DNA from: a bacterium | GTDB taxonomy: Bacteria > Bacteroidota > Ignavibacteria > Palsa-1295 | NCBI GenBank assembly: GCA_037143335.1 | Contig: JBAWZA010000011.1 | Span: 13,494 to 77,493 of the forward strand | Direction: 5' to 3' | Length of the DNA stretch: 64,000 nucleotides | Part shown: in pieces, positions 53,882 to 54,211 of the stretch | Position numbering within the stretch: position 1 is the first letter of the stretch | Layout of the letters: every line of letters begins with the position of its first letter | Translations under genes and position numbers: made by a program | The notes under the pieces: generated by a model | Told to the model about the DNA's origin: nothing | Seen by the model: only the letters and a program-made list of their open reading frames with translations | Database searches by the model: none

Positions 53882-54211
53882 ATGGACGAACACGTACTAC
53901 ACTCGAGAGAGAGAGAGAGAGAGAGAGAGAGAAGAAAACCAGGCTATCCGAAGAATGATACGCCTTGGGACAAATTAGATTTCGAAGTTCAAGGTCAGTA
54001 TGGAAACCAATTCCGGTATCTCGCTGAAAGACTTCCTGATCTCACCCCGACAGAAATAAAGGTAGCTACGTTAATTAGAGAAGGATTTTCCACTGATGCA
54101 ATTTCTGGAATGCTTTGCGTCTCGCCAAATACAATTAAAACACATCGCAAGAGCATCCGCAAAAAATTGGGATTGACCTCGAATCTACAAACTTTCTTAA
54201 ATGGAGTTTAA
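53882..54211 (+). CDS. Small LuxR-type HTH transcriptional regulator carrying an N-terminal (GA)14-encoded RE-repeat
   Basis: 109 aa. The C-terminal LTPTEIKVATLIREGFSTDAISGMLCVSPNTIKTHRKSIRKKLGL is a LuxR/GerE HTH. Residues 9-18 (RERERERERR) are encoded by the dinucleotide repeat. Confidence 0.6.
   Translation: MDEHVLHSRERERERERRKPGYPKNDTPWDKLDFEVQGQYGNQFRYLAERLPDLTPTEIKVATLIREGFSTDAISGMLCVSPNTIKTHRKSIRKKLGLTSNLQTFLNGV
53905..53932. repeat. (GA)14 dinucleotide microsatellite inside the 5' coding region of the LuxR-type regulator
   Basis: 28 bp perfect GA repeat read directly from the sequence. Gain or loss of one unit shifts the reading frame. Confidence 0.9.

Follow-up and report, generated by a model that had tools for sequence, protein, structure and literature searches.

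A (GA)14 tract near the 5' end of the gene for a stand-alone LuxR-type regulator, a candidate contingency locus in an uncultured Bacteroidota genome

Can a dinucleotide repeat near the beginning of a small regulator gene act as a phase-variation switch in an uncultured bacterium? The locus that raises this question is a run of GA units within a gene for a protein with a LuxR-type DNA-binding domain, in a 64,000-nucleotide stretch of DNA (hereafter, the window) from a metagenome-assembled genome (MAG) of the Bacteroidota (Ignavibacteria, Palsa-1295; assembly GCA_037143335.1, contig JBAWZA010000011.1, positions 13,494 to 77,493 of the forward strand). A first-pass annotation, made from the letters of the sequence and their open reading frames (ORFs), had proposed that the gain or loss of one repeat unit shifts the reading frame and truncates the regulator. 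Here, we examine the tract, the protein that it interrupts, and the genes around it. We conclude that the locus is a good candidate contingency locus, well supported yet unproven.

The repeat, its reading frame and the regulator

The tract consists of exactly (GA)14, i.e., 28 bp with 100% matches, flanked by CACTC on the left and by AGAAAACC on the right, which agrees with the perfect microsatellite described in the first-pass annotation. The second-longest dinucleotide run in the window is 10 bp (5 units), no run in 1.9 Mb of unrelated prokaryotic loci exceeds 5 units, and a perfect dinucleotide run of 28 bp would, by analytic expectation, occur ~1e-11 times in 64 kb. The GA tract is real, and its length is far beyond chance. 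The earlier description of the tract as very unusual in an otherwise non-repetitive genome is accurate as far as the rarity of the tract is concerned, but the window is not free of other long simple sequence repeats (SSRs), as it also contains a G11 homopolymer (Table 1). An Rfam scan of the window gave no match.

Read in the frame of the ATG at 53882, the tract and its neighboring codons encode S-RERERERER-RK, which corresponds to residues 8-19 of a 109-aa ORF and places the arginine-glutamate (RE) repeat near the N-terminus, where it had originally been noted. This ATG is the sole ATG, GTG, or TTG codon in the frame of the helix-turn-helix (HTH) domain between the upstream stop codon and the HTH, and the remaining two frames enter the GA tract without any start codon. 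Since the conservation of the protein family begins at about residues 17-20, directly after the tract (RRKP-GYPKNDTPWDKLD, W29DKLD), translation must begin upstream of residue ~17, and the only available start is ATG 53882. The tract therefore lies inside the coding sequence, as annotated. A start codon 3' of the tract, which the first-pass annotation had named as the observation that would undo its proposal, was considered and rejected, as the HTH frame contains none between the tract and the conserved region.

The consequences of a change in tract length were then obtained by simulation. Tracts of 11, 14, and 17 units yield proteins of 107, 109, and 111 aa, respectively, in which the HTH is kept, and tracts of 10, 12, 13, 15, 16, and 18 units yield peptides of 22-34 aa. 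In particular, the gain or loss of a single unit leaves peptides of 24-32 aa that lack the HTH, so that the claimed frameshift and truncation are reproduced in the simulated lengths. Because the HTH frame has no start other than ATG 53882 and conservation begins after the tract, 11, 14, and 17 units correspond to a predicted ON state and other lengths to a predicted OFF state. The locus thus has an uninterrupted repeat of 14 perfect units, which is long enough to be hypermutable given that published switches work with 10-12 AG units, and this repeat sits within the coding sequence, downstream of a start codon that no other start could replace; both are features of a contingency locus.

The protein itself, which bears the name "helix-turn-helix transcriptional regulator" in the NCBI record, belongs to the LuxR/GerE HTH class by profile score (Pfam GerE, E 8.4e-12, 45 bits against a gathering cutoff of 23.5). 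GerE is its only Pfam match above cutoff, accompanied by two weak sub-threshold HTH matches, and its NCBIfam matches all fall at about residues 26-105 and far below their cutoffs; among them, the C-terminus of the BT3442 family matches residues 26-100. An AlphaFold model, built from an alignment of the small-regulator family defined below (alignment A1), shows a four-helix bundle with predicted local distance difference test (pLDDT) values above 90 for residues 41-109. In a Foldseek comparison, its HTH superposes on the DNA-binding domains of RcsB, NarL, LiaR, and VraR with a root-mean-square deviation of 1.1-1.3 A over 55-60 residues. The "LuxR-type" label used initially is appropriate for this domain and does not extend beyond it. 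No autoinducer-binding domain was found in the 109-aa protein with Pfam or NCBIfam, which sets it apart from the quorum-sensing LuxR receptors. Likewise, the protein does not belong with the NarL/FixJ response regulators, which have an N-terminal receiver domain with a phospho-acceptor Asp: there is no Pfam match to Response_reg, and only 53 residues, with two helices at 28-50, precede the HTH.

The phmmer matches of the regulator include a family of small stand-alone regulators, which we defined from eight proteins (P0032, P0054, P0067, P0076, P0077, P0082, P0100, and P0103) of 99-148 aa, several of them from Bacteroidota MAGs. The window regulator shares 30-42% identity with them in alignment A1 (phmmer E 1e-9 to 1e-11), together with a basic patch, the motif W-[ED]-x-[ILV]-[DEN] ... 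G-x-Y in two helices that adjoin the HTH, and a variable N-terminal tail; it is a member of this family by all of these features. Upstream of the conserved part, the tails of the family vary in both length and sequence. In the AlphaFold model, pLDDT is 56-64 for residues 1-30 and exceeds 84 from residue 31 onward, and a helix at residues 8-18 is predicted with low confidence. In this model, the GA tract encodes a poorly ordered tail, in which in-frame changes of length should be harmless.

Altogether, we consider it somewhat probable that (GA)14, near the 5' end of the coding sequence of a stand-alone mini-LuxR factor, is hypermutable and acts as a frameshift switch. According to the mechanism that we propose, slipped-strand mispairing at replication would add or remove GA units. 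With 11, 14, or 17 units, ATG 53882 would be in frame with the DNA-binding domain (ON); with other lengths, translation would stop after 22-34 residues and no other start would rescue the HTH (OFF). In-frame changes would be tolerated, as the low-confidence tail encoded by the tract lies outside the folded core. The regulator most likely controls, by activation or repression, the adjacent genes for a cysteine-rich (Cys-rich) protein and for a Kelch protein with a sorting domain of the type IX secretion system (T9SS). As a consequence of slippage, some cells would make these secreted or surface proteins and others would not, in a mixture that arises stochastically and is both heritable and reversible. 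We infer that GA units slip often enough in this organism to be useful, that the adjacent genes are the target of the regulator, and that selection maintains the switch. A break in an independent assembly, an SSR in a homologous gene, the G11 tract beside a paralogous cassette, and the location of the gene in a low-GC insertion that is absent from relatives all point indirectly to switching, as described in the following section.

Assembly break, homologous repeat and gene neighborhood

An independent Logan assembly of the same organism (run SRR12676966) was found by exact look-ups of two flanking proteins. Its left contig includes the 626-aa gene upstream of the regulator and terminates in ...ATGGACGAACACGTACTACACTC(GA)14, i.e., CACTC(GA)14, and its right contig, which carries the downstream genes, begins with (GA)13AGAAAACC. 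Logan contigs are built from 31-mer graphs from which singleton k-mers are dropped, and contigs of 150 bp or less are unreported (PMC12424806). In our simulation with k = 31, a uniform tract of 14 units (28 bp) is traversed without a break; the left terminus fits a branch between 14 and at least 15 units, and the right terminus fits a branch between 13 and at least 14 units. Since a uniform tract would be traversed, yet both contigs end inside the tract, the reads of SRR12676966 appear to disagree on its length. The break thus hints at heterogeneity of tract length, and it is suggestive only.

The left contig (L162) also breaks at window position 51256, just past a 13-bp tandem repeat (51216-51246), in a G-rich segment, after which come two perfect hairpins (CCCGCCTTCGCGGG and GGGACGGTCTCTTAGACCGTCCC). 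The region (51216-51330) is present as one copy in the window and could represent either a pair of terminators or an intergenic element of a repeated kind.

Within the small-regulator family, the gene for P0100 was recovered from three Bacteroidota assemblies (GCA_025357895.1, GCA_043724845.1, and SRR22198308). It begins with ATGAAAAATGCCCCCCCCCAGC, in which a C9 homopolymer lies between the start codon and the conserved motif, at a position equivalent to that of the GA tract. Runs of at least nine G or C are themselves rare, with only ~10 independent occurrences in the 1.9-Mb background. Two overlapping ATG codons in different frames precede the C9 tract (ATGAAAAATGC9), a layout that recalls the lic loci of Haemophilus influenzae; through these two starts, C9 and C10 would be ON-capable, and with C8 and C11, the HTH frame would have no start (OFF). 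No indels were found among the three copies, and no SSR is present in the other family member for which DNA was available (P0103, in L165). Both P0100 and P0103 are followed by genes for secreted proteins, a T9SS cargo protein and a Peptidase_C1 protein, respectively.

The window regulator and its two presumed targets lie together in a lineage-specific insertion of ~3.3 kb. In two related genomes, the orthologue of the 626-aa gene is followed directly by PEPCK, and the regulator gene is absent; orthologues of the 626-aa gene share 45-51% identity and come from Bacteroidota and "Ca. Kapabacteria" MAGs. Most 400-nt windows within the insertion have a GC content of 38-43%, rising to 45-47% near its PEPCK end, and the flanking genes have ~44-50%.

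A paralogous copy of the Cys-rich and Kelch/T9SS gene pair is found elsewhere in the window, on the opposite strand. Each protein shares 45% identity with its counterpart (blastp E 1e-55 for the Cys-rich pair and 4e-111 for the Kelch/T9SS pair), and both Cys-rich proteins have a signal peptide ending in ...A-x-A, followed by QCPS. The 218-aa Cys-rich protein had been taken for an ORFan, as a word-indexed search returned only the protein itself. This was dropped: the same search missed the 45%-identical paralogue in the window, so that the apparent ORFan status reflects a limit of search sensitivity. The G11 tract sits in a 559-nt non-coding region upstream of the paralogous pair. In this region, we found neither a LuxR paralogue nor a clear TAnnTTTG box, and we regard G11 as a candidate promoter or 5'-untranslated-region phase-variation tract. 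Therefore, the two exceptional SSRs of the window both lie just upstream of the two copies of one two-gene cassette, one of them in a regulator gene and the other in an upstream region. In addition, four paralogous Kelch/T9SS proteins with 28-45% identity are encoded within 30 kb (27815-29203, 35445-36719, 40347-41654, and 54958-56271), and a Cys-rich partner gene stands beside only two of them.

Candidate promoter boxes of the regulator and of the downstream Cys-rich gene were assigned by their match to TAnnTTTG, which we take to be the -7 promoter consensus of Bacteroidota. A promoter scan found no sigma-70-type site nearer to the regulator ATG than this box, and the sigma-70 promoter and terminator scan otherwise gave nothing relevant. 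Together with the T9SS domains and the homologues of neighboring genes, these promoter motifs form the basis on which our analysis placed the organism. All features are listed in Table 1.

Table 1. Positions of the features discussed, in window coordinates unless a contig is named.
Feature	Position	Strand	Basis and remarks
(GA)14 perfect dinucleotide repeat	53905..53932	+	Codons 9-17 of the regulator (RERERERER); also at the termini of Logan contigs L162 and L161
Stand-alone mini-LuxR regulator, 109 aa	53882..54211	+	ORF; Pfam GerE match; identical NCBI protein MEI8134890.1
LuxR/GerE-type HTH DNA-binding domain, aa 54-103	54041..54190	+	Pfam PF00196
Two conserved helices before the HTH, aa 28-50 (W-D/E-K-L/I-D ... 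G-x-Y)	53963..54031	+	Alignment A1; motif scan; AlphaFold helices H28-35 and H39-50, pLDDT >84
Candidate regulator promoter, TATATTTG	53784..53791	+	TAnnTTTG match; 98 nt upstream of the ATG
Pyrimidine tract, TTTTTTCTTTCT	53864..53875	+	Just upstream of the ATG; weak predicted mRNA pairing with 53926-53937 (3' end of the GA tract plus AGAAA), enclosing the AUG
Candidate -7 box of the downstream Cys-rich gene, TATCTTTG	54260..54267	+	TAnnTTTG match; 39 nt upstream of that gene
Cys-rich protein, 218 aa	54299..54955	+	Signal peptide; no Pfam or NCBIfam match; presumed regulator target
Kelch beta-propeller with T9SS C-terminal sorting domain	54958..56271	+	Kelch_1 1.6e-36; Por_Secre_tail 1.3e-9; TIGR04183; presumed co-regulated cargo
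Lineage-specific insertion, ~3.3 kb (regulator, Cys-rich, Kelch/T9SS)	53713..57001		Between the 626-aa gene and PEPCK
Paralogous cassette	40347..42298	-	Cys-rich, 229 aa (42298..41609); Kelch/T9SS, 435 aa (41654..40347)
G11 homopolymer (C11 on the coding strand)	42458..42468	-	160 nt upstream of the paralogous Cys-rich start; only other long SSR in the window
P0100 mini-LuxR gene	L166 2546-2860; L167 1980-2294; L168 2445-2759		C9 at codons 4-6

Alternative explanations of the tract

Several observations weigh against a frameshift switch, and some of them favor a neutral explanation, in which a mini-LuxR gene, a weakly constrained accessory gene of recent acquisition, has a dispensable N-terminal tail where a transient microsatellite grew by chance; the tract would be mutable without being maintained as a switch, and the gene would be at risk of pseudogenization. 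Only a single allele, the ON allele of 14 units, has been seen, with no OFF allele and no second strain. PCR or sequencing stutter at (GA)14 could equally cause the contig breaks, and no single simple mixture of alleles yields both termini in raw unitigs (i.e., without graph simplification). The gene lies in a lineage-specific low-GC insertion, and no orthologue was found for the comparison that the first-pass annotation had suggested: an exact and word-indexed search of 5.8 billion proteins returned only the protein of the MAG itself; a phmmer search of 1.84 billion representatives gave, besides the protein itself, no match above 50% identity or better than E 1e-20; and scans of GTDB genomes and JGI metagenome contigs found no orthologue. 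What these scans recovered were ~50%-identical C-terminal modules of large PAS- and TPR-LuxR proteins, mostly from Desulfobacterota; with these as its nearest relatives, the window gene could be a recent fragment. Likewise, tblastn against plasmids gave large regulators only, and no further small family members were found among 168 loci. In the P0100 gene, two of the three frames are ON-capable, and its look-up by exact protein means that only ON alleles could be found. Furthermore, the upstream regions of the two cassettes share no operator-like motif, and although the two paralogues would both have an SSR within 400 nt upstream with a chance probability of only about 1e-4, this rough estimate is post hoc. 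Nevertheless, an uninterrupted tract of 14 units would be hard to reach or keep by drift, given that the 1.9-Mb background contains no comparable run, and the observed allele is in frame. The regulator belongs to a family of intact stand-alone proteins and has a well-folded core, which argues against a fragment in decay. Moreover, an SSR of another type has arisen independently in the corresponding position of a homologue, and the paralogous target cassette has an SSR of its own. Taken together, we consider the neutral explanation unlikely, although it is the most probable of the alternatives.

The tract could instead serve a role that does not depend on frameshifting, either through a charged (RE)n tail tuned in steps of three units or as a rheostat formed by H-DNA or an mRNA hairpin. 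In support of such a role, (GA)n is translated into RE repeats in each of its frames and the model contains the low-confidence helix in this segment; triplexes are classically formed by (GA)n.(TC)n, and a predicted mRNA fold pairs the pyrimidine tract upstream of the ATG with the end of the repeat (53926-53937) around the AUG, with z = -1.7 in a 96-nt context. However, this fold is not significant in a longer context (z = -0.1 for 163 nt), none of the homologues has the RE segment, which is part of the low-confidence tail, and the commonest slippage, by one unit, would shift the frame anyway, so that any such role would coexist with ON/OFF switching. We therefore regard a purely non-frameshift role as quite improbable. 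Even less credible is an assembly artefact, in which two unrelated flanks were joined or the true length is not 14, making the 109-aa ORF chimeric or its frame uncertain. It is true that the Logan assembly does not bridge the tract and that all of the sequence comes from MAG or short-read data. On the other hand, the left Logan contig contains the ATG, seven codons, and (GA)14, and the right one contains (GA)13 and continues in the frame of a family-typical protein; the flanking 626-aa gene and PEPCK are neighbors in related genomes; no 31-mer that spans the tract occurs a second time in the window; and the N-terminal "LHS" of the regulator resembles that of the homologue P0054. A frameshift switch in the regulator gene thus remains the explanation that we favor.

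Significance and comparison with known systems

To our knowledge, nearly all cases of phase variation through SSRs come from host-adapted pathogens, and few of them involve a switched transcription factor. The Bacteroidales precedent cited in the first-pass annotation is mainly one of DNA inversion rather than SSR slippage. What appears to be new here is the setting, an uncultured and apparently free-living member of the Bacteroidota, together with a dedicated mini-regulator of T9SS-type cargo and the recurrence of SSRs in the regulator family and at the paralogous cassette. If the (GA)14 tract does act as a dinucleotide switch in such a mini-regulator, contingency-locus biology would extend to environmental lineages, and a secreted-protein cassette would be switched at the level of its regulator as opposed to that of the effector.

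A broader and more tentative possibility, which we hold to be rather doubtful at present, is that contingency loci are regular in free-living uncultured Bacteroidota. In this case, the mini-LuxR family would have repeatedly and independently gained SSRs in its N-terminal tail, as (GA)14 and C9, and these would form, together with G11, a two-tier stochastic switch for the paralogous Cys-rich/Kelch T9SS cassettes. If so, this would amount to SSR-driven bet-hedging of the secreted and surface proteome, outside the host-pathogen setting and in a phylum whose phase variation is ascribed mainly to DNA inversion. In addition, since MAG assemblers fix one repeat length, genes of this type may be mis-annotated as either intact genes or pseudogenes. 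The GA switch is directly testable because both run SRR12676966 and the MAG are public.

With regard to the protein, the window regulator resembles GerE of Bacillus subtilis and other single-domain LuxR-family proteins, in that a four-helix HTH stands alone without a sensor domain. As far as we know, GerE has neither an SSR nor the W-x-K-L-D pre-helices. The C-terminus of BT3442-type and TPR-LuxR regulators (e.g., in L032) matches the two pre-HTH helices of the window regulator; unlike this 109-aa protein, BT3442-type proteins exceed 500 aa and carry sensor or TPR parts.

With regard to the repeat, an N-terminal placement of SSRs has been documented as a signature of phase variation (PMC3315296). 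Dinucleotide switches are exemplified by the Type III mod genes of Mycoplasma, in which (AG)12 is OFF and (AG)10 is ON (PMC3498834), and by oipA and sabA of Helicobacter pylori, which carry (CT)n tracts (PMC10564699, PMC2715451). These genes and the window gene have in common a dinucleotide repeat of some 10-12 or more units in the 5' coding region, where the number of units sets the frame, and the Mycoplasma mod product is itself a global regulator (phasevarion). However, the published genes encode methyltransferases or outer-membrane adhesins of host-adapted bacteria, whereas the gene described here encodes a DNA-binding transcription factor with presumed T9SS-related secreted effectors. In mga of group A Streptococcus, slippage at a poly-C tract in the coding sequence of the regulator leads to phase variation of a surface protein of its regulon (PMC10330708). 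As in the window gene, the SSR lies within a regulator coding sequence; mga differs in that the regulator is of the Mga/PRD type rather than a LuxR HTH protein, the repeat is a homopolymer, and the host organism is a pathogen.

The closest known system is rmpA of hypervirulent Klebsiella pneumoniae, for which a poly-G switch has been shown experimentally (bioRxiv 10.1101/2025.09.12.675794). Both rmpA, which encodes a transcriptional activator, and the window gene carry an intragenic SSR upstream of the LuxR-type DNA-binding domain of a small regulator, and in both, the residues encoded by the tract form a flexible segment that is not part of a folded domain. In rmpA, slippage truncates the protein before the HTH and turns a surface phenotype ON or OFF; the same truncation is predicted for the window regulator. 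The two differ in that the rmpA repeat, a G10 homopolymer, encodes part of the linker between domains of a ~210-aa protein from a host-associated pathogen, whereas the window repeat is a GA dinucleotide in the tail that precedes the single domain of a 109-aa protein, from an uncultured environmental member of the Bacteroidota.

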